DNA of 64,000 nucleotides, from the IMG/VR virus record IMGVR_UViG_3300038312_000089; one strand, 5' to 3'. Below, in pieces: positions 1,702 through 46,287 of the stretch. The first letter of the stretch is position 1. Each line of letters starts with the position of its first letter. A model generated the notes under the pieces. That model was not told where the DNA came from. It was given only the letters and a program-made list of their open reading frames with translations, and ran no database searches. A program made the translations under genes and the position numbers. Source of the DNA: an uncultured virus (IMG/VR IMGVR_UViG_3300038312_000089) (lineage: Duplodnaviria > Heunggongvirae > Uroviricota > Caudoviricetes).

Positions 1702-1870
1702 GGGGGTGACGGGCATCGTCGCAAAATTAGTTTAGGCAGCGATGTGGACAGAGAGTGGTTTGCGCAGACCCACACGCTGACAGTAAACAAAACGAGAGTT
1801 TTGAGCCGGTGCAATTCCGGTCTCGCTTAACAATTTTGTGAACGGCGGTTCGACTCCGCCCACCTCCACA
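1702..1870 (+). ncRNA. ssrA: Miniature tmRNA-like RNA (Ala acceptor stem, T-arm, P2 helix, short tag ORF)
   Basis: GGGGGTG/CACCTCC-A acceptor stem with G3:U wobble; T-arm GGCGG-TTCGACT-CCGCC; helix CGCAAAATT/AATTTTGTG; internal frame 1783..1830 VNKTRVLSRCNSGLA*. Confidence 0.75.
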
Positions 1871-1930
1871 GCCTCGTCTACCATGCGTAGAAAGAGATCT
1901 TTCACCGCTGATTAGGCGGTGAATGCATTT

Positions 1931-8245: not shown

Positions 8246-8937
8246 TGTGTAAATTTTTTAGTTTTGTAACAGACCCAGTCAACCATCCAGCAGAGTATTA
8301 CTACTTGGACTGGCAGTATCGCAAGGAAAACCTCAAAGCGGATGACGCTGACAGTCACTCGCACATCTGTAAAGAGTTTAACTTGCGTGAGGATGTGTGC
8401 AACAAGTATGAGTTCAATCCGCTGACGAAGAGGTTTGTAATTGACCAGATTAATGCCGAAAGGGACGACAGCAAAGCGGCGGAGAAATGGGCAAACCGAC
8501 TGGACTACAAGACAGTGGTTGAGCCGCTGATTATCAAACCGATTGTTAATCCGCTAGAGTCGCCAAAAGCGGAAAAACCAACCAACGAGCAGATTGGTTG
8601 GCTGAAAGAGTGGACTTCGGTCTGGACTTCGGTCGGGGCTTCGGTCTTGGATTCGGTTAGGACTTCGGCATGGGCTTCGGTCAGGGCTTCGGTCTTGGAT
8701 TCGGTTAGGGCTTCGGTCTGGGATACGGTCAGGGCTTCGGTCTTTGATTCGGTATTGGCTTCGGCATGGGCGTATATTTCAACTTTTTTCGACGTCGAGT
8801 ATAAATTCGACTATTCTTCCGCCATCAAGCTGTGGGAGTCAGGACTTGTTCCTTCATTTGACGGCACGACATGGCGGTTGCACAGTGGCGAGAACGCGGA
8901 CGTTGTGTTCGAGTGGACACCGGAGGTGAAGGAATGA
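8245..8937 (+). CDS. Phage protein with internal tetrapeptide (xxSV) repeats
   Basis: MCKFFS start; WTSV/WASV/LDSV repeats encoded by 12-nt units at 8611..8772. Confidence 0.7.
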   Translation: MCKFFSFVTDPVNHPAEYYYLDWQYRKENLKADDADSHSHICKEFNLREDVCNKYEFNPLTKRFVIDQINAERDDSKAAEKWANRLDYKTVVEPLIIKPIVNPLESPKAEKPTNEQIGWLKEWTSVWTSVGASVLDSVRTSAWASVRASVLDSVRASVWDTVRASVFDSVLASAWAYISTFFDVEYKFDYSSAIKLWESGLVPSFDGTTWRLHSGENADVVFEWTPEVKE

Positions 8938-9396: not shown

Positions 9397-9828
9397 ATGA
9401 CCAAAGACGAATTGAAATCAATATTAGAACAGCATAGGTTGTGGGTAGAAGGCAACGGAGGCAAACGGGCCGACCTGCAATATGCTAACCTGCAAGATGC
9501 TAACCTGCGAGGTGCTGACCTGCCATGCGCTGACCTGCAATATGCTAACCTGCGAGGTGCTGACCTGCGAGGTGCTGACCTGCGAGGTGCTGACCTGCTA
9601 GGTGCTGACCTGCGAGGTGCTAACCTTGATTATTCCTGCCTCCCCCTTTGGTGTGGTAGCAAGGGCATGATAGTTGACCGGCGCATTGCGGCACAAATAG
9701 CGGCTCACTTTTGCGCGTTGGATTGCGATGATGCTGACTATCAGGCGGCACGAACCGCAATATTGGAGTTCGCAAGGACGAGCCACAGGGCAATGGATTT
9801 GGGACTGGTAGAGGAGCGTGAGGAATGA
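9397..9828 (+). CDS. Pentapeptide-repeat protein
   Basis: Tandem A(D/N)Lxx repeats; 15-nt DNA repeat. Confidence 0.9.
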
Positions 9829-12621: not shown

Positions 12622-12732
12622 TCGAGCTATGGGGCTTGCCGGCGAGCCTAATCACCGGCATTGAATTATTAGTCATCGCAAAGACACTGTTCATCGAGCT
12701 ATGGGGCTTGCCGGCGAGCCTTATCACCGGCA
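12622..12732 (+). repeat. Two 39-nt direct repeats (72-nt period), each a predicted H-type pseudoknot
   Basis: TCGAGCTATGGGGCTTGCCGGCGAGCCT(A/T)ATCACCGGCA at 12622 and 12694. Confidence 0.85.
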
Positions 12733-34221: not shown

Positions 34222-34447
34222 ATGAGTAAAAAAAACAAAAAAATGCTTTGCGAAAGCCAAGTGGCAGCAGTTTTCTTGAATCCCGCCCAAACCAGCACCA
34301 GAGTAGGGCAGCTGTGGAGAGGCCAAGAGGTAACCATCGTAAAAATGGATGGTGACTGGGTAAGGATCGATCAGCCAGAGGGGTTGGGTGATCAAGGGGC
34401 ACCTGATAGATGCCCCTGTTGAAAATGAAACACAGGTAAGATCATAA
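34222..34447 (+). pseudogene. Frameshifted SH3b-domain gene
   Basis: VGQLWRGQEVTIV..DGDWVRI..PEG; removing one G at ~34381 restores GWVIKGHL...*. Confidence 0.6.
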
Positions 34448-35365
34448 CCCCCAATTTGTGACAGGGCTGGCTCTGCGATGAGCTGCCTGGATATCCACCT
34501 GTGCAATTGCCAGGTAGCGCTTGACCATGTCCAGGGTGGAATGTCCAAGGATCCTTTGCAAGGTATAGATATCACCACCATTGCGCAAGAAGTTGATGGC
34601 AAAGGTGTGACGGAATCTGTGGATGGTGGGATCCTGGACACCTGCTCGTTCTCCCAAACGATAAATCGATTTTAGGAAGTTATCTCTAAGGAGCGGAGTG
34701 CCATTGACCGTGGCAAAAGCGGGTGAATTGATCAGCATGTCTGGACGGGTTGAGAAGTAGGACCAGATTGCCTGAGCGGTTCTGCTCGAGATAGGGATCT
34801 GGCGCTCTTTACGCCCTTTCCCCATTACCATGATGTTTCGATTGCGTAGATCCACATCCTTGATCTTGAGACCGCAATACTCGCTTGCCCGGATGCCAGT
34901 ATCCAGGAGCAGAAACAGGCTTGTTTTCAGGCGTAGACCTTCGGGGTAATCAGTTGCCGTCTCACGTTGGCCTGGGAGCAAGTAGAGCTTCTTTTTTTGG
35001 CAGCTTGCCAACATGGCCTTGATATCTGCTTCGGTATAGGGCACAACGGCGATTTCATCCGGTCTGGGCGGTTTGTAGGTTTGAGGCACTTTTTCATCAA
35101 CGAGTTTTTGCTGGTATGCCCAGGTCCAAAGAGCTGACAATCCGGTATGGTAGTTTTGCAAGGTCTTTTTTTTGAGATGTTGATACCGACTTATGAAGCC
35201 TGCAATGTGTTCGACGTTGATGTCATTGATTAGCAGATCTTCACCGAGGAAAGTTTGGAACTTGCGGAAAGTGTTGAAGTAGTCCTGGATGGTATGGGGT
35301 GAGAGCTTTGGCTCCGCAAAGAGGATGTAGCCTTCGAGTGCTTGAGATAGCGTTAGTTGTTTCAT
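34442..35365 (-). CDS. int: Tyrosine integrase (phage B)
   Basis: GIRASE, GKGRKER, HRFRH, LGH, RY catalytic set; RBS before ATG 35365. Confidence 0.95.
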   Translation of the reverse strand: MKQLTLSQALEGYILFAEPKLSPHTIQDYFNTFRKFQTFLGEDLLINDINVEHIAGFISRYQHLKKKTLQNYHTGLSALWTWAYQQKLVDEKVPQTYKPPRPDEIAVVPYTEADIKAMLASCQKKKLYLLPGQRETATDYPEGLRLKTSLFLLLDTGIRASEYCGLKIKDVDLRNRNIMVMGKGRKERQIPISSRTAQAIWSYFSTRPDMLINSPAFATVNGTPLLRDNFLKSIYRLGERAGVQDPTIHRFRHTFAINFLRNGGDIYTLQRILGHSTLDMVKRYLAIAQVDIQAAHRRASPVTNWGL

Positions 35366-35554
35366 AATCCGTGCTGCCTCCTGAACAGCCTTTAGTGGTT
35401 GGGATAACGCTGGTTTTGGTTTGGAATAAAAAAAGGACACCAGCTTTTTTTTATACTGGTGCCTTCCTGCCTCAATCCGTGCTATACGGAGTGGCTTATC
35501 CGTACTATCCGAGGGTGTATTTGAGGCTTTTTCCCTCGTTGGGACTTGTTACAA

Positions 35555-35723: not shown

Positions 35724-36092
35724 CTATTCGTTTGTTCCTAAAGCGGAAAGTTTTTTTGCTTCTTTTTTTGTGTATGTCCTTACTAGAACATGCACATTTA
35801 TCTTCCCTAAGTTAGTTTCTTTTAGTTTTGAAACTGAAAACTTGATAATATGACCATGTTTCGCGGCTTGGATGATCAGATCCGAATCAAACCCCCTTAT
35901 TTCGCCGATCTCTGCATTATCTTCATCTGTAATAACCACCCACTGAGTTTCGTTAAAATCATCGTCATATTTAGACTCAACTGAACCCTTTAGTTCATCT
36001 CCGATCTTTAGATGAGCGATATTGTCCTGTCTAGGACATCCAGCATCGTCTTCAAGAGTGGTTCCAGTCAATCGCACAATTTTCTCTATCAT
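35724..36092 (-). CDS. HIRAN-like domain protein
   Basis: GTT...RQDNIAHLKIGDEL..E..YD...EIG pattern; coupled to the repressor. Confidence 0.55.
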   Translation of the reverse strand: MIEKIVRLTGTTLEDDAGCPRQDNIAHLKIGDELKGSVESKYDDDFNETQWVVITDEDNAEIGEIRGFDSDLIIQAAKHGHIIKFSVSKLKETNLGKINVHVLVRTYTKKEAKKLSALGTNE

Positions 36093-36700
36093 TACAATCT
36101 CCTACGAATTTCAATGACTTTACCAATAATTGTTATCGGAAGGGCGGCGACCTGGTCGGAATCGAAAAAGACCGGGTCATAGGCAGGGTTGCTGGGGATG
36201 AGCATGATCCCTTTTGGAGAGAGCTTCACGCGTTTGATGGTGAAATCTTCCCCATTGACACGGACAACAGCTATTTGTCCATTTTCGACATATTCCTGTT
36301 TTTCGATGATGACAATATCGCCGCTGCGAAGATCTGGCTCCATGCTATCGCCCTTGACATGGAGAGCAAAGAGCTCGCCGTGTTTGACAAAGCGCGGGTA
36401 TATGTCGATGTACTCTTCGATATCTTCAATGGCTTCGATAGGGGTCCCTGCAGGAACGGATCCAAGCACAGGGATCATACGACTTGTTTCAGTTTGTGGT
36501 TGGCTTATCTTGCCTAATAGGTAGTCTACGCTGACGTCAAGATTGATTGCAATTTGAGCGAGAGTTTGGGTATCGGGATCCCGTGTCCCCGTCTCATAGG
36601 TCGAATAGGCTTGTCTCGAAACAGAAATGAGACTGGCCAGTTTTTCTTGGGTGAACCCCTTTGCTTTTCTGGCGTTCTTCAAACGTTCCATGTTGATCAT
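36092..36700 (-). CDS. CI-like repressor (XRE HTH plus S24 peptidase)
   Basis: RLKNARKAKGFTQ..YETG; VPAG cleavage site, GDSMEP, TIKR. Confidence 0.95.
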   Translation of the reverse strand: MINMERLKNARKAKGFTQEKLASLISVSRQAYSTYETGTRDPDTQTLAQIAINLDVSVDYLLGKISQPQTETSRMIPVLGSVPAGTPIEAIEDIEEYIDIYPRFVKHGELFALHVKGDSMEPDLRSGDIVIIEKQEYVENGQIAVVRVNGEDFTIKRVKLSPKGIMLIPSNPAYDPVFFDSDQVAALPITIIGKVIEIRRRL

Positions 36701-37420: not shown

Positions 37421-38383
37421 ATGCAGATGGAATCTGGTAACGAAGCAAAGCAAGCAGCCTGGCAAGACGCAATCCGGCTCTGGCTGCATCGGCAGAACAG
37501 CCGGCACACGGCTCAGTCCTATCGATCGAGCCTGACTGGCCTGCTTGCCTATTGCGGAAAGCCTGCCTGGGAGATCAGCCGGAAAGATATTGCCGGCTGG
37601 CTGGCAGATCTGCACCAAGCGGGCAGGTCGGATGCGACGGTTGCGAGCCGGATCAGCGGGGTCAAGAGCTTCTACAACTTCGTAATTCGTGAATATGTCA
37701 CCCTGGACATGGACGGCGAGGAGTATCGTCTTCGTGAGGACAACCCGGCTGCGAGCTTCAAGCTGCCAAAAGTCGAACGATATGGTAAGGCGCTGTGCTG
37801 GGATGAAGAACAAGCCGGCGCATTCCTGCGAGCCATCAATACAGACAACCTACCAGGACTTCGAAACAAGGCTCTTTTTGCAGGGTATCTACTGACAGGG
37901 CTCCGAAATTCTGAGCTCCGGCAGCTCCGGTATGAGGATCTTGAAGTGCTGCCAGGTGGGATAGTAATTATGAGGTACCAGGGCAAAGGCAAGCCCAACC
38001 AGACCAAAGAAGTTTACCCACCAGTGTACGAAGCGATCATGGCATTTGCTGATGCAGAGCAGAAGTTCACTGGTTTTGTTTTCCACCGGTATACAAACAC
38101 GGGGGAAATTGTTGATCTGCCAATCTCGGACCAGACGGTCAGAGACAGTCTCAAGTATTACGCCCGAAAAGCCGGCCTGCGTACCAGGGGATTGAAAGTG
38201 CACAGTTTACGGCACACAGCGGCTTATTTGAGAGCACAAGCTGGCGATGATGAAGACACGATAAGGAGGTTCCTGAAACAAAACAACGTTGAGACCACGA
38301 GATTGTATTTACAGAAGCTGATGCCAAATCCGGATAAGACCTGGATGACGGTAAGCGAAATGTTGGGGCTTGCGAGCTCCTAG
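37421..38383 (+). CDS. Second tyrosine recombinase (Xer/resolvase-like)
   Basis: GLRNSEL, KGK, HSLRH, TTRLY; second His position reads Q. Confidence 0.9.
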   Translation: MQMESGNEAKQAAWQDAIRLWLHRQNSRHTAQSYRSSLTGLLAYCGKPAWEISRKDIAGWLADLHQAGRSDATVASRISGVKSFYNFVIREYVTLDMDGEEYRLREDNPAASFKLPKVERYGKALCWDEEQAGAFLRAINTDNLPGLRNKALFAGYLLTGLRNSELRQLRYEDLEVLPGGIVIMRYQGKGKPNQTKEVYPPVYEAIMAFADAEQKFTGFVFHRYTNTGEIVDLPISDQTVRDSLKYYARKAGLRTRGLKVHSLRHTAAYLRAQAGDDEDTIRRFLKQNNVETTRLYLQKLMPNPDKTWMTVSEMLGLASS

Positions 38384-41890: not shown

Positions 41891-42396
41891 AAGCAATCAG
41901 CATCAAGCAGCCCTGGGCGTGGTTGATCGCCACTGGGTACATGACAGTGGAAAACCGGAAGTGGTATACGGCGCACCGGGGCGATATCCTGATCCATGCC
42001 AGCAAAAGCAAGAAAGATCTTGAACGGGATATTGACCATGTAAGAAGGGTTTTCATGATTGGGATCGACCCTGAACGGCTGGAGTTTGGAAAGGCACTGG
42101 CAGTAGCTGACCTGATTGGCTGTACCAAGGAACCAGAGGCGCGGGTCGATCAGTACTGGCACAAAGAGGGCTATTTCGCCTGGATCCTGCGCCGGATCCG
42201 TCCGATTGACCCGTTTGAAGTTCGGGGAAAGCTGAATTTATTCGAGGTCCCATTCTCCTGGGGCGAGTACCCTGAACAGCTCGGGCAGCCTATCACGTTT
42301 GCCAGGGCTGTGTTTACGATGTTTCAAGCAGAGGTTGTTGACGCGTTCGGCGGTGTCAACGACTGGCCGGCATATTTGCGACCAAGTAAGTTCTAA
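41887..42396 (+). CDS. ASCH-domain protein
   Basis: MKAISIKQPWAWLI..G...VENR.W...RG.ILIHAS. Confidence 0.9.
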   Translation: MKAISIKQPWAWLIATGYMTVENRKWYTAHRGDILIHASKSKKDLERDIDHVRRVFMIGIDPERLEFGKALAVADLIGCTKEPEARVDQYWHKEGYFAWILRRIRPIDPFEVRGKLNLFEVPFSWGEYPEQLGQPITFARAVFTMFQAEVVDAFGGVNDWPAYLRPSKF

Positions 42397-42409
42397 GAAA
42401 GAGGGTTAC

Positions 42410-42622
42410 ATGCCAGAAGAGACAGTGATCATTGAGTGTCAGAAATGCGGCCGGGAGGTCGGGAGATTGAGCGACTTCAAGGGCCGGCAGATACTGATCG
42501 TGAACGGGATCGCAACTACCTTCTGGCGGGGTGTTTGCGTAGAATGCGGCAGGGAGTTCCACTGGGACATGGGGACGAAGGCGCTGGCAGAGTTGATCAA
42601 TCAGATGCTTCAAAAGGAGTGA
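42410..42622 (+). CDS. Small zinc-ribbon protein
   Basis: CQKCG...CVECG. Confidence 0.65.
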   Translation: MPEETVIIECQKCGREVGRLSDFKGRQILIVNGIATTFWRGVCVECGREFHWDMGTKALAELINQMLQKE

Positions 42623-42988: not shown

Positions 42989-43125
42989 GATAGACCAACA
43001 TTTACCGATTCCCAACCAACCAACCAACAATTCTTTTTATTCGTTGGTTGATTTTTGTATAGTAAATGGAACAGGCAGGTATAATGTGGGTACCAAAGGC
43101 GCAAACAAACCAGGAGGTAAAGCAT

Positions 43126-44607
43126 ATGTCACTCGAGAACCGCACGCTCTATTTTGGGGATAATCTGCAGGTAATAGAGGAGAGATTTCCCGACAACTTT
43201 TTTGACTTGATCTACCTGGACCCGCCATTCAATTCAAATCGAAATTACAACGTGCTATTCAAAGAAGGACAGGTGGACGCTACGGCCCAAATCAGGGCGT
43301 TTGAGGACACTTGGGAATGGTCCACCCCTACCATCAGACTTTTTAATGACCTGAAGGAAAGCAAAAACCCACAGATCGCAATCATGATGCAGAGCCTGTT
43401 TGAGATCATGCGAGACACTCCAATGATGGCTTACCTGGTGAATATGACAGCAAGGCTGATCCCACTGCAGAGAGTGTTGAAGGAGACCGGATCCATCTAC
43501 CTGCATTGCGACCCTACCGCAAGCCACTACCTGAAAATGATCATGGATGTTGTGTTTGGGAAAAGGAACTTCGTTAATGAAATCATTTGGAGTTACAAAA
43601 AATGGTCTGTTGCTGAAAAGAGTTTTTCACGCAACCATGATGTAATTTTATTTTATGTCAAAGATAGAGATAAATCTAAGTTCAACATACAATACCAATC
43701 AAGAGCTGAATCGACATTAAAGAGATTTGGGAATAAAACAATCGTTTCTGGTTTTGATGGGAATGGTAAAAGAATCCCATCCACCACAACCGAGGTCGAA
43801 TCGAGTGGTGTCAAAATGTCTGACGTATGGGAAGTGTCTATTATTGCTCCAGTCTCTAATGAGCGCCTCGGTTATCCAACTCAGAAACCAGAAGCATTAC
43901 TCGAGCGCATCATCCAGGCATCGAGCAATAAAGGTGACTGGGTATTGGATCCATTCTGTGGATGTGGAACTACCGTAGCTGTTGCAGAGCGATTGAACCG
44001 GAAATGGATCGGCATTGATATTAGTATGCAAGCGGTGAACGTGATCAGGGGGCGAATGACGAACCACTTTCCAGGGATCAAGGTCAACATTGACGGGATC
44101 CCGATGGATTACGAATCAGCTGCGGCACTGGCTGAAAAGGATAAGTTTGCCTTCCAGGACTGGGCGATAACCCTCGTAGGCGCAAACCCACCAAGTGGGG
44201 TGTCGAAAAAGGGCGCAGATAGAGGAATTGATGGGATCATCCTTTTCAGAGAAAAAGTTGATTATTCTAACCCGAAACTGCGCAAGATCGTTGTTCAGGT
44301 AAAAGGCGGAGGGACTAACAGGGGAGACGTTGCCAGGCTAAAAGGCGACCTGGATAGAGAGGATGCCCCGATGGGAATCCTGATCACACTCAAGGATGCC
44401 ACATCTGAGATGAAACGTGAAGCGGCTTTGTCCGGAGAATATCAGTACACTCAATCGACCGCATTCCCACGGATCCAACTGTTATCGATCCGGGAATGGT
44501 TTGAAGGCAAGGAGCTAAAGCTGCCGGCTGACACAGTAAACCCGTTCAAAAAAGCGGAAGCCAAAAAGGGTAAGGATGTCGGGCAGCTGGAAATCGATTT
44601 GGAATAA
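43126..44607 (+). CDS. Beta-class N6A/N4C DNA methyltransferase fused to a C-terminal PD-(D/E)xK (Mrr-like) nuclease
   Basis: YLDPPF, YPTQKP, DPFCGCGT; ADRGIDG...VQVKGG. Confidence 0.9.
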   Translation: MSLENRTLYFGDNLQVIEERFPDNFFDLIYLDPPFNSNRNYNVLFKEGQVDATAQIRAFEDTWEWSTPTIRLFNDLKESKNPQIAIMMQSLFEIMRDTPMMAYLVNMTARLIPLQRVLKETGSIYLHCDPTASHYLKMIMDVVFGKRNFVNEIIWSYKKWSVAEKSFSRNHDVILFYVKDRDKSKFNIQYQSRAESTLKRFGNKTIVSGFDGNGKRIPSTTTEVESSGVKMSDVWEVSIIAPVSNERLGYPTQKPEALLERIIQASSNKGDWVLDPFCGCGTTVAVAERLNRKWIGIDISMQAVNVIRGRMTNHFPGIKVNIDGIPMDYESAAALAEKDKFAFQDWAITLVGANPPSGVSKKGADRGIDGIILFREKVDYSNPKLRKIVVQVKGGGTNRGDVARLKGDLDREDAPMGILITLKDATSEMKREAALSGEYQYTQSTAFPRIQLLSIREWFEGKELKLPADTVNPFKKAEAKKGKDVGQLEIDLE

Positions 44608-44675
44608 TTTAAGGTTTCTCACTGGTGTTTTTGGTGAAAATAGCATGGCGGTATAGTAGAATAACCATTGTGCTT

Positions 44676-44748
44676 GCCCCCATAGCTTAATGGAACGAGC
44701 TTTTCATTTGCGATGATTAAGATGGGAGTTCGAGTCTCCCTGGGGGCA
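44676..44748 (+). tRNA. Atypical tRNA-like gene, anticodon TGC, no G3:U70
   Basis: GCCCCCA/TGGGGGC-A acceptor stem, D-arm, T-arm GGGAG-TTCGAGT-CTCCC; anticodon stem has only 3 pairs. Confidence 0.75.
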
Positions 44749-44766
44749 TTCACCTTTTATATTACC

Positions 44767-44795
44767 TTGACAGTTTCTAAAGAAATCCTTATACT
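44767..44795 (+). promoter_or_regulatory. Near-consensus sigma70 promoter for a small downstream RNA
   Basis: TTGACA-17-TATACT. Confidence 0.75.
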
Positions 44796-45020
44796 TTAAC
44801 CATCATCGCAAATGATAGACGTATCCATTGAGCAACTCGGAAAAAGGAGAAAAAAGGAGCACTATCCCATCTCTCCGCCGTCAAGCCGCCGCCCTCTGAA
44901 TCCCCTTCAGGGGCGGTGTGCTTTAAGGTGACAATGCCTGAATGAAATTCTTGTAATCACCCCCTATATATGGTATTATATTAGGTAGAAAACCGAATAT
45001 CTGGCGTTTGTTGGCTTCCA

Positions 45021-45068
45021 ACCAACCATTGATCTTGAGAGAGATCGCGTGGTTGGTTTTTCGTTTTT
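45021..45068 (+). terminator. Terminator/attenuator in the phage B late leader
   Basis: AACCAACCA...TGGTTGGTT stem plus T-tract. Confidence 0.7.
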
Positions 45069-45104
45069 AAGCGCCTGGAGCGACCAGGAGAAGGATGGAG
45101 TTGA

Positions 45105-45443
45105 ATGCAACCAATTGAGTTTACCCCTGAGATGATTATCAATGTGATCGCTGTGATTGCCAGTTTGCTAGCATCATACTTCCCGGCGCTCTCAACCTGG
45201 TTCGCAGGATTGAGGTCGGAAGTGAAGAGCGGGATCATGTTGATCGGGATGGTGATTGTTACAGGAACGATCGTCTTGTTAGTCAACATGGGATTGATCC
45301 CATCCACAGCGGGCCCGATTACATTGGCCCAAGCCGTTTACGCATTTATCCAGGCCTTGATCTTTAATGCTGGGACTTACATCGTTTCACCACAAACCAG
45401 CAAGGTCAAGCAGGTCAAGGCAACCCGCAACCTGGCAGGATAA
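45105..45443 (+). CDS. Holin-like membrane protein
   Basis: Three TM segments; first gene of the late operon. Confidence 0.65.
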   Translation: MQPIEFTPEMIINVIAVIASLLASYFPALSTWFAGLRSEVKSGIMLIGMVIVTGTIVLLVNMGLIPSTAGPITLAQAVYAFIQALIFNAGTYIVSPQTSKVKQVKATRNLAG

Positions 45444-45446
45444 CGA

Positions 45447-45953
45447 GTGGATCTGTTACAGATCATCCTGATACTGATCCCCGTCGCGCTGGGAAGCGGC
45501 GGCCTGGGTTCAGTGATCGCGACCAACATTGCCAACCGTCACAAAGCAAAAGCAGAAGCTGAGAAAGCTGAAGCCGAAGCGGTGAAGATCAAAGCTGAAG
45601 TTGAAAAGGTGAAGGCGGATATCGTCGACACGTTGGCCGAGCATTATGCCTCCGAACTGACTGCGTTACGTAACGAATCAAAAGATATGAAATCCCAGAT
45701 TGCTAACCTGAATATTGAAATCGCCCAGCTTAAATCAGAACGAAAATCCGGCGAGGTCACAATTGAAACATTGACAAAGAAGAACACGGAGTTGACCTCG
45801 CAAGTCCGGGAGTTGACAGAAGCGTCGGAAAAGAAAGATGCGCGGATCCTGGAGCTTGAGAAACAGGTGGCTGTCATCCCAGGGCTTGAGAAGCGCATTG
45901 CTGAGCTCACTGCTCGGCTGGATGCTTTCAATGGGAAGAGTAACTGTGACTAA
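45447..45953 (+). CDS. Membrane-anchored coiled-coil protein
   Basis: N-terminal TM (LGSGGLG) plus long coiled coil. Confidence 0.6.
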   Translation: MDLLQIILILIPVALGSGGLGSVIATNIANRHKAKAEAEKAEAEAVKIKAEVEKVKADIVDTLAEHYASELTALRNESKDMKSQIANLNIEIAQLKSERKSGEVTIETLTKKNTELTSQVRELTEASEKKDARILELEKQVAVIPGLEKRIAELTARLDAFNGKSNCD

Positions 45954-46287
45954 TCGTCCGTTACGCCCATGCTCGTATCCTGGCTGCCCCAACCTGGTGA
46001 CAAGTGGGCGGTGCCAGGCGCACGCATCCACGGGTACCGGGTGGACCAGAGACCGGAACCGGCAGAGGTTGTATGACCGACGTTGGCAGTCATTCCGGGT
46101 AGCGTTCCTGGCGGAGCACCCTTGGTGTGTCGCCTGTGAGCGCGTAGGCATTACAACACCAGCAGAACATGTGGACCATGTTACGCCGCACAAAGGCGAT
46201 CCACAAAAGTTCTGGAGTGGTCCTTTCCAGGCCTTGTGCCCGAGCTGTCACTCGAAGAAGACAATCGAAGAGACGGGGGGGGGATGA
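45946..46287 (+). CDS. Terminase-associated HNH endonuclease (HK97 gp74-like)
   Basis: PCSYPGC, CVAC, VDHVTPHKGD, LCPSCHSKKT. Confidence 0.9.
   Translation: MTNRPLRPCSYPGCPNLVTSGRCQAHASTGTGWTRDRNRQRLYDRRWQSFRVAFLAEHPWCVACERVGITTPAEHVDHVTPHKGDPQKFWSGPFQALCPSCHSKKTIEETGGG

Follow-up and report, generated by a model that had tools for sequence, protein, structure and literature searches.

The predicted products of two neighbouring transcription units of a tailed phage must, judging from their sequences, pair with each other in a bipartite and specific manner that begins at the predicted 5' end of the second RNA. The units lie on the 64,000-nt stretch IMGVR_UViG_3300038312_000089, from an uncultured virus of the Caudoviricetes (the full stretch is termed the window here and all coordinates refer to it), and constitute a small cassette that encodes a tRNA-shaped RNA (RNA 1) and, downstream on the same strand, a putative small RNA with a promoter of its own (RNA 2). 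The interpretation favoured, at a probability of roughly 0.45, is that the cassette is an optional and self-contained two-RNA module with exchangeable specificities, in which the small RNA would capture the tRNA-shaped RNA and open its fold. Its components are the following.

44634-44662, + strand: P1, promoter-like site of the tRNA-shaped RNA, GTGAAA-17-TAGAAT (consensus match, 9/12)
44676-44748, + strand: tRNA-shaped RNA (RNA 1), 73 nt, scaffold S1, arm type UGC, with canonical acceptor and T arms, a 3-pair anticodon stem and C3:G70 (ARAGORN, Rfam)
44685-44694, + strand: D-arm site, tRNA nt 10-19, pairs with small-RNA nt 23-32
44704-44717, + strand: anticodon-arm site, tRNA nt 29-42, pairs with small-RNA nt 1-14
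44767-44795, + strand: P2, near-consensus promoter TTGACA-17-TATACT (consensus match, 11/12)
44802-44926, + strand: partner small RNA (RNA 2), predicted at about 125 nt, with 5' seed, second site, internal hairpin and terminator hairpin (start inferred from the promoter, end from the hairpin)
44802-44815, + strand: seed (site 1), perfect complement of the anticodon arm from the predicted +1
44824-44833, + strand: site 2, complement of the D-arm (9 Watson-Crick pairs and 1 G.U)
44846-44876, + strand: internal hairpin GGAGA...TCTCC with a variable inner part
44883-44923, + strand: GC-rich hairpin and GGTGTGCTTTAA tail, early-operon terminator apparently reused as the 3' end of the small RNA (predicted fold)

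Complementarity of the two RNAs

The anticodon arm of RNA 1 (44704-44717) and the segment 44802-44815 form an inverted repeat of 14 nt, 100% complementary and with 84 nt between its arms. An earlier note, made from the letters of this DNA, had reported this perfect match and had placed the complement at the expected start site of a TTGACA-17-TATACT promoter; both statements hold, and the first base of the complement is the 7th base past the -10 hexamer of P2, the usual start position. With up to two mismatches allowed, the 14-mer occurs at only these two sites in the window. As a control, the longest perfect complement of nt 8-48 was determined for 114 cellular tRNAs, each with 260 nt of downstream sequence; it measured 5-8 nt in 111 cases, 9 nt in two and 11 nt in one. 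The complementarity is thus beyond chance, given that the 14-mer has no third site in the window and that all but one of the controls stay below the 10-15 nt found in nine cassettes of this type. An upstream complement of the +1 region accompanies three of 117 promoter-like sites in the window and related loci, and all three belong to cassettes.

The nine distinct cassettes come from a narrow group of phages and comprise three tRNA bodies (S1, S2 and S3) and seven types of anticodon arm; several records were the same assembly filed twice, and such duplicates were removed for this count. Seven cassettes have the S1 body (those of the window, L002, L003, L001, L004, L075 and L122, with near-copies in L125 and L128). 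In all nine, the 10-15 nt from the 7th base after the -10 hexamer complement the anticodon arm of the same cassette. Setting nt 1 of the downstream RNA at that 7th base, the longest perfect complement between tRNA and downstream RNA (10-15 nt) starts at nt 1 in 7/7 S1 cassettes, and in L004 it can extend one base further upstream. The S2 cassette (L132, L133) encodes a 67-nt tRNA-like RNA and has a TTGACT-17-TATAAC promoter; the S3 cassette (L137, anticodon GCU) has TTTGCA-18-TATACT and an 11-bp D-arm site, which has changed along with a different D-stem. In both, a seed of 13 nt begins at the 7th base past the -10 hexamer.

Within the S1 group, nt 29-37 of the tRNA are Watson-Crick paired in 63/63 cells (nine positions in seven cassettes), and of the 26 tRNA positions paired in one or more cassettes, 9 have changed on both sides. 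L002 and L003 differ in one base of the loop, and the target has changed to match. A second complement, just downstream of the seed, pairs with tRNA nt 10-18 (the 5' strand of the D-stem and the D-loop) through 61 Watson-Crick and 2 G.U pairs in 63 cells. Position 15 of the tRNA covaries with its partner, being A:T in the window, L002 and L003 and G:C in L001, L004, L075 and L122; the sole deviations in the D-arm are the G.U combinations, which are pairs in RNA and mismatches in DNA. The two sites add up to a bipartite duplex of about 22-24 bp in cassettes with the S1 or S3 body; the S2 cassette has a clear 13-nt seed only, its site 2 amounting to five pairs, two of them G.U. Such a duplex cannot coexist with the L-shaped tRNA fold (D-stem and anticodon stem). 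Cognate pairs are predicted to gain a net -7.2 to -16.2 kcal/mol when co-folded, and pairs of different types about 0 to -3.4 kcal/mol.

The search for conserved complementarity and compensatory change in homologues, which the earlier note had proposed as a check, is therefore strongly positive across nine cassettes and seven arm types. Because the complementarity is conserved and covaries, a selected RNA-RNA interaction is supported, and the strong covariation likewise supports the suggestion that a tRNA scaffold is used here for specific RNA-RNA pairing.

Two explanations at the level of DNA have to be weighed against these data. In the first, the two arms are inverted repeats recognized by a site-specific recombinase which flips the 84-bp promoter segment, and their identity is kept for reasons of DNA. 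The promoter is indeed flanked by inverted repeats, the seed pairing contains no G.U, and a second integrase-family gene occurs in the early region (37421-38383). Such an invertible promoter is nevertheless highly improbable, because the repeats are hypervariable (seven unrelated sequences, with only 10 nt in L001 and L004), unlike the sites of sequence-specific recombinases, because the right arm always starts at the predicted +1, and because 31/31 copies of the locus that include the 5' half of the tRNA share one orientation and 0/31 are inverted (many of them duplicates of about a dozen assemblies). In addition, the outer repeat in the D-arm tolerates differences of the G.U type only, and the only contig spanning both arms (X12, probably DNA) is collinear.

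The second explanation denies any RNA-RNA function and supposes either that an ordinary phage tRNA gene stands beside an inverted partial duplicate in decay or that a palindromic operator occurs in two copies. Many phages have tRNA genes, the anticodon arm of the window is itself palindromic, and its complement resembles a palindromic operator overlapping +1. Decay, however, would destroy the complementarity, whereas the seven arm types are all perfectly matched; the centres of the two 'operators' are reverse complements, not copies; the arms are non-palindromic in L001, L004, L075, L122, L132 and L137; and the identity pair of tRNA-Ala is absent. A neutral remnant is contradicted by this evidence and is hardly credible.

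The tRNA-shaped RNA

ARAGORN reports a single tRNA in the 64-kb window (44675-44749, anticodon TGC), and the tRNA model of Rfam (RF00005) matches 44676-44748 with 54.9 bits, above the gathering score of 29 that defines the family. The L075 copy reaches 53.7 bits with this model and ranks 42nd among the 46 tRNA matches of its host genome. TAGAAT sites equivalent to P1 precede the tRNA-like genes of L137 and L132; upstream of the L075 gene, no P1-type site was called in the promoter scan.

In spite of these scores, RNA 1 does not appear to be a decoder. The G3:U70 pair is the identity determinant read by alanyl-tRNA synthetase (AlaRS), and the window RNA carries C3:G70, as opposed to G3:T70 in 3/3 tRNA-Ala genes of G001, the one host genome available (an Anaerolineaceae metagenome-assembled genome). 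With C3:G70 in place of G3:U70, the window RNA is, on sequence grounds, not a working tRNA-Ala. Beyond this pair, the argument against decoding relies on three further features. Five anticodons (UGC, CGG, CGC, GAC and AGC), including those of Ala, Pro and Val, are found on one identical S1 acceptor/T-arm body; position 37 is T (U37) in two arm types, GAC and AGC; and the anticodon stem has only 3-4 pairs in 8/9 cassettes versus five pairs in 36/45 host tRNAs. The hallmarks of a decoding tRNA (conserved anticodon, purine at position 37, 5-bp anticodon stem) are thus missing, with the exception of S2 (L132), which has a canonical CU-CCU-AA loop and five pairs.

The bodies of the cassettes resemble tRNA-Arg genes of the host: the T-arm of S3 is identical to that of tRNA-Arg(GCG), and the acceptor and D-arm of S1 are like those of tRNA-Arg(UCG/GCG). 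The canonical acceptor/T-arm half suggests that RNA 1 would be a substrate of RNase P. As a separate observation, the T-arm and 3' acceptor strand of S1 (25 nt) are identical to those of a CAA-type tRNA-Leu of many Alphaproteobacteria (L006-L115), while the D-arm and acceptor of S1 are of the Anaerolineae tRNA-Arg kind. The earlier idea that the RNA is a sensor which releases its target when cut by an anticodon nuclease fits poorly with seven unrelated anticodon arms.

The partner small RNA

A promoter of the form TTGACA-N17/18-TATACT is present in 7/7 S1 cassettes, and P2 matches the consensus better than P1 (11/12 versus 9/12). In the consensus fold of the small RNA, the seed is followed by a short stem that closes a 12-nt loop with the D-arm site, then by a GGAG/CTCC hairpin of variable interior and by a long GC hairpin with GGTGTGCTTTAA. 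The seed region had been described as a hairpin ATCA-TCGCAAA-TGAT, and its 4-bp stem and 7-nt loop are possible, but the predicted fold has a 5-bp stem (ATCAT/ATGAT) and a 5-nt loop. A seed at the 5' end and then a terminator is the architecture of a trans-acting small RNA.

Coding capacity was also considered. The 39-aa open reading frame (ORF) at 44812-44931 (+ strand), whose ATG lies within the paired region and which had been thought to encode a peptide, exists in the window but is not conserved across relatives: the target of L001, L004, L075 and L122 has no ATG, the frame stops after 10 codons in L002 and L003, and the spacing of conserved blocks varies out of frame. It is therefore most likely not a gene. 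Among the S1 relatives compared, no reading frame in or after the target is conserved, and the Shine-Dalgarno-like AAAGGAG included in the internal hairpin is not followed by a conserved start codon.

The terminator-like hairpin noticed earlier at about 44883-44924 is present in the predicted fold, and a simple terminator scan of the window did not call it (44883-44923). Its interpretation as part of a late-operon leader is weakened by relatives that lack the cassette and keep the hairpin. Since the same hairpin and tail stand directly after the last early ORF in the cassette-less L134 and L135, the hairpin is an ordinary early-operon terminator, with the cassette as an optional insertion in front of it. 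L134 even retains the 3' untranslated region (3'UTR) of the L132 type. RNA 2 is accordingly composed of a promoter and seed set in front of a 3'UTR and terminator that were already in place. Only promoter and seed are specific to it, and the cassette adds to the 3'UTR no more than a promoter and about 30 nt of antisense.

These features bear on a further alternative, T-box-like antitermination, in which the tRNA-like RNA would bind a leader through its anticodon (and its elbow or acceptor end) and stabilise an antiterminator, allowing P2 transcripts to read into the late genes. The parallel, which the earlier note had drawn, lies in a leader RNA that reads a tRNA anticodon: the ligand is tRNA-shaped, a specifier-like complementary site precedes a terminator-like hairpin, and GCA faces UGC. 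Closer inspection did not sustain it. The Rfam search gave no T-box match at E up to 10, and the features typical of T-boxes (a 3-nt codon-anticodon contact, sensing of the acceptor end, an antiterminator switch) were not found in the cassette; pairing over 10-15 nt requires an opened anticodon stem, no conserved complement of the acceptor end was detected, neither single nor consensus folds offer an alternative to the terminator, and the hairpin occurs in cassette-less relatives. Control of the T-box kind is contradicted by these results and merits very little credence.

The material from RNA libraries consists of unstranded Logan contigs, namely X10 (44634-44784), X16 (44577-44727), X12 (44602-44821, probably DNA, as said) and X17 (44973-45300, from a relative), in which no joints were reported; such contigs carry no information on RNA ends, strand or level and have no bearing on expression either way.

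Distribution and mosaicism of the cassettes

Scans with exact patterns retrieved five viral contigs, two true cassettes among 110 genome loci, and eight true cassettes plus two chance matches among 10 metagenome loci; the non-cassette genome loci were mostly alphaproteobacterial tRNA-Leu genes with the same T-arm and acceptor. Independently of these patterns, ARAGORN detected four tRNAs in 80 loci chosen as relatives by their large terminase subunit (TerL), and 4/4 have a downstream complement of 11-14 nt. The S2 and S3 patterns hit their own contigs only, loci collected by means of the methylase gene contained no additional cassettes, and a promoter-plus-complement scan together with a 12-nt inverted-repeat scan of related loci yielded no new ones. 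Among cultured phages, neither the window cassette nor that of L137 has a DNA match, and the best TerL identity is 44% (Paenibacillus phages).

The cassette is optional, as close relatives (L134, L135, L140 and L142, TerL identity 90-95%) have neither the tRNA-like gene nor P2. The S2 and S3 bodies occupy the same genomic slot, in phages whose TerL proteins are 94-95% identical (L132 and L137). In a second lineage (L003, L075) the cassette is located between head-morphogenesis and scaffold genes, and it is followed closely by a promoter with a short leader and a strong terminator, and then by structural genes. L132 and L133 lie on the contigs that are also listed as L002 and L005, so that one phage carries two cassettes; these, S1-CGG and S2-CCU, are separated by a 101-aa ORF, a 312-aa ORF and a methylase gene.

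Variation is concentrated in the pairing segments. The T-arm and acceptor are identical across the seven S1 cassettes. When the window is compared with L131, which has the cassette of L004, the flanks agree in 25-30 of 30 positions and the T-arm and acceptor are identical, whereas the anticodon arm (16/30) and the stretch that comprises tRNA trailer, P2 spacer and seed (9-18/30) are unrelated. L122 combines the flanks and small-RNA body of L003 with an arm and a seed of the L075 type. This mosaic pattern is, on the sequences compared, the picture of an exchangeable specificity cassette. Also in L122, 600 nt downstream of the cassette, the motif TAYGGGCACNATGTGAC occurs three times in non-coding sequence, an arrangement that resembles an iteron or operator array.

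Off-site pairing was considered as well. In the host genome G001 the L075 seed matches perfectly only at the two cassette sites, with four further sites at one mismatch; at up to two mismatches there are 31 matches versus 15 for the reversed control, and the extra targets are not convincing. A genome-wide RNAduplex scan was dominated by long spurious duplexes.

Proposed mechanism and alternatives

In the favoured interpretation, RNA 1 would be a tRNA-derived cloverleaf whose canonical acceptor/T-arm half provides processing by RNases P and Z and stability, and whose anticodon arm serves as a freely exchangeable address. RNA 2, made from the near-consensus P2, would pair through its 10-15-nt seed with the anticodon arm and through a second stretch with the D-arm, thereby opening RNA 1; it would thus be a dedicated antisense partner, an antidote or a silencer. 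This role is suggested by its build (5' seed, hairpin, terminator), by the fact that nothing else in it is specific to the cassette, and by its better promoter. The weak D-stem and anticodon stem would ease the opening of RNA 1, and work on antisense loops indicates that the U-turn geometry of an anticodon loop favours fast initial contact. Mutual titration, with or without RNase III, could make the pair a threshold device that acts in an antitoxin/toxin or Sok/hok-type manner, and the hypervariable address may keep related co-resident phages from cross-reacting. By analogy, an optional, self-contained and hypervariable module with the stronger promoter on the antisense partner has the profile of an antitoxin/toxin or exclusion system.

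A more specific version, which is improbable, casts the cassette as an RNA-only toxin-antitoxin or abortive-infection module. The tRNA-Arg-derived RNA would be a stable rogue tRNA that, un- or mischarged, poisons translation or tRNA-handling enzymes, and the labile small RNA would be the antidote that opens its D-arm and anticodon arm; the arm would then be only an address, and prophages would be spared cross-neutralisation.

Several points weigh against the favoured interpretation as a whole. Both promoters and the terminator are predicted from consensus matches, and the host is uncultured and probably belongs to the Anaerolineae. The pairing is symmetric, so that sequence alone cannot tell which RNA acts on which; the stable tRNA-like RNA could equally be the regulator. 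The sample is small and drawn from a narrow phage group, its records including duplicate assemblies. Specificity is incomplete in that the UGC/CGG/CGC group cross-pairs (-14.9 kcal/mol for the L002 tRNA-like RNA with the L003 small RNA); according to the models, discrimination within this group would rest on 1-3 loop bases. S2, with its canonical loop, could still be a working tRNA-Arg. Lastly, the cassette lies just upstream of a promoter-leader-terminator unit in two phage lineages, and this recurrent position could mean a link to late-gene control.

The last point leads to the alternative of an immunity system like c4 or CI, a serious contender although less probable than the favoured interpretation. 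Here the tRNA-shaped RNA, processed by RNase P, would pair with the nascent 5' end of the P2 transcript and block or permit the downstream late unit, and the exchangeable arms would define heteroimmune types. The covariation evidence speaks for it just as for capture and unfolding of RNA 1; two antisense segments with two downstream targets on the same strand mirror the layout known for c4; the cassette stands directly upstream of a promoter-leader-terminator-structural-gene unit in both lineages; and mosaic hypervariability is typical of immunity regions. On the other hand, the targets neither overlap nor precede a conserved ORF or ribosome-binding site, cassette-specific sequence ends with the seed, and the cassette is missing from close relatives. 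No alternative pairing between seed and terminator was found, and L003 and L122 share a terminator while their seeds differ. In four phages, pairing of either RNA with the downstream late leader was no better than with shuffled sequences (z -2.3 to +0.8), a strong terminator still lies between P2 and the late genes, and the Rfam search, at E up to 10, detected no C4 RNA.

Relation to known systems

Antisense RNAs that mature by processing, c4 and CI among them, form a classic but rare class of regulators described for phages of enterobacteria. By analogy, c4 of P1 and P7 and CI of P4 are the closest systems in function, and RNA I/II of ColE1 is the closest in pairing geometry; the comparison with P1 c4 and P4 CI made in the earlier note was apt.

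The c4 RNA is processed by RNase P and has a two-segment (a/b) design. The c4 RNA of P1 and P7 targets the ant mRNA, its recognition elements lie in loops, and the RNA underlies P1/P7 heteroimmunity (PMC12197685). The cassette shares with it a structured phage RNA whose loop-exposed segments pair with downstream sites on the same strand, and type-specific target changes that compensate; the presence of two antisense segments and two downstream sites with compensatory differences is likewise a feature of c4 seen in the cassettes. Unlike RNA 1, c4 is not a cloverleaf, and the Rfam C4 family is absent both among the six matches at E up to 10 in 43500-46000 and at the gathering score in the whole window. 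The targets of c4 cover a ribosome-binding site and control icd/ant, whereas the target in the cassette is the extreme 5' end of a putative non-coding RNA with no conserved ORF; the cassette, unlike c4, also has two promoters of its own.

CI of P4, like a related small processed RNA of N15, is an antisense RNA that depends on tRNA-processing enzymes, serves as immunity factor and pairs with a nearby leader. It causes premature termination of the very transcript that encodes it, whereas no termination switch was found in the cassette and the terminator is shared with cassette-less relatives. In ColE1, the tRNA-like stem-loops of RNA I kiss the 5' end of RNA II via complementary loops, and specificity types define incompatibility. 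The ColE1 pair comes from opposite strands, which makes complementarity automatic; the cassette RNAs come from separate sites on the same strand, outside any replication-origin context, and their complementarity must be maintained by selection. In systems with RNA antitoxins (type I, Sok/hok-like; 'type VIII', SdsR/RyeA and CreT/CreA), a strong antisense RNA neutralises a weaker-promoted neighbour, and such modules are optional and variable in mobile elements. The cassette differs in having no toxin peptide, the would-be toxin being a tRNA-shaped RNA, and the likeness is one of architecture only.

In the open full-text literature (subscription journals lie outside this coverage) no description of a tRNA-shaped phage antisense RNA was found, and the word 'tRNA' occurs 0 times in a 2025 review on small RNAs of phages. 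The cassettes are set apart by the use of a full tRNA cloverleaf as pairing surface, recruited on three tRNA bodies, by an anticodon arm that serves as hypervariable address for a partner consisting of only promoter and seed, and by their occurrence in uncultured phages that probably infect Chloroflexota. They caution that some annotated phage 'tRNA genes' are not decoders, and they form a naturally occurring collection of orthogonal lock-and-key RNA pairs in which compensatory controls are already built in. Should the small RNA indeed silence the tRNA-shaped RNA, RNA-RNA control of a new type would be at hand, and perhaps a module for addiction or defence made of RNA only; if the rogue-tRNA toxin were real, its partner would be the first known case of a dedicated small RNA that silences a tRNA-shaped RNA through unfolding.

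Genomic setting

The annotated ORFs of the window give it the gene content of a temperate phage, the host of which probably belongs to the Anaerolineae (Chloroflexota). The early genes are followed, in this order, by genes for a membrane protein, HNH, TerS, TerL, portal, protease and capsid proteins. The neighbouring features are listed below.

34442-35440: integrase
36092-36700: S24/HTH repressor
37421-38383: second tyrosine recombinase (integrase-family) gene, in the early region
43066-44607: methylase-Mrr fusion, last of the early genes in the window
44951-45075, + strand: late-type promoter TTGTAA-17-TATTAT preceded by TG, then a short leader that runs into a strong intrinsic terminator; the unit lies upstream of the late genes and outside the cassette

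The unit at 44951-45075 is kept in cassette-less relatives too. In its leader (about 90 nt), GTTGG...CCAAC can compete with the terminator CCAACCA...TGGTTGG plus T-run, which gives it an attenuator-like appearance. A gene at 42299-42622 (+ strand) encodes a 107-aa protein with two CxxC pairs and no Pfam match; it is the last early gene, directly 5' of the late promoter, in the cassette-less L135 and L140, and it is also directly 5' of cassette 1 in L002. Because of these positions, its product is a candidate late-gene regulator.

The window contains two related prophages in tandem (1-34150 and 34150-64000), with long direct repeats of 80-95% identity that lie 31-34 kb apart (e.g., 10083-10373/41127-41417 and 31206-31505/63375-63674); of the two, only the second has the tRNA-like cassette. 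In the first prophage, the slot equivalent to that of the cassette, between a small Cys-rich ORF and the next genes, holds two 39-nt direct repeats (12622-12660 and 12694-12732) that are 97% identical and 72 nt apart, each with a GCCGG...CCGGC hairpin. A partial tmRNA match at 1702-1871 (+ strand) scores 47.3 bits against an Rfam threshold of 47 and covers model positions 1-374 in only 170 nt, with no tmRNA reported by ARAGORN; it may be an ssrA fragment at a prophage attachment site. Tandem arrays with periods of 12 nt (12 copies) and 15 nt (9 copies) are present within ORFs of the first prophage, at 8600-8779 and 9458-9652, respectively.

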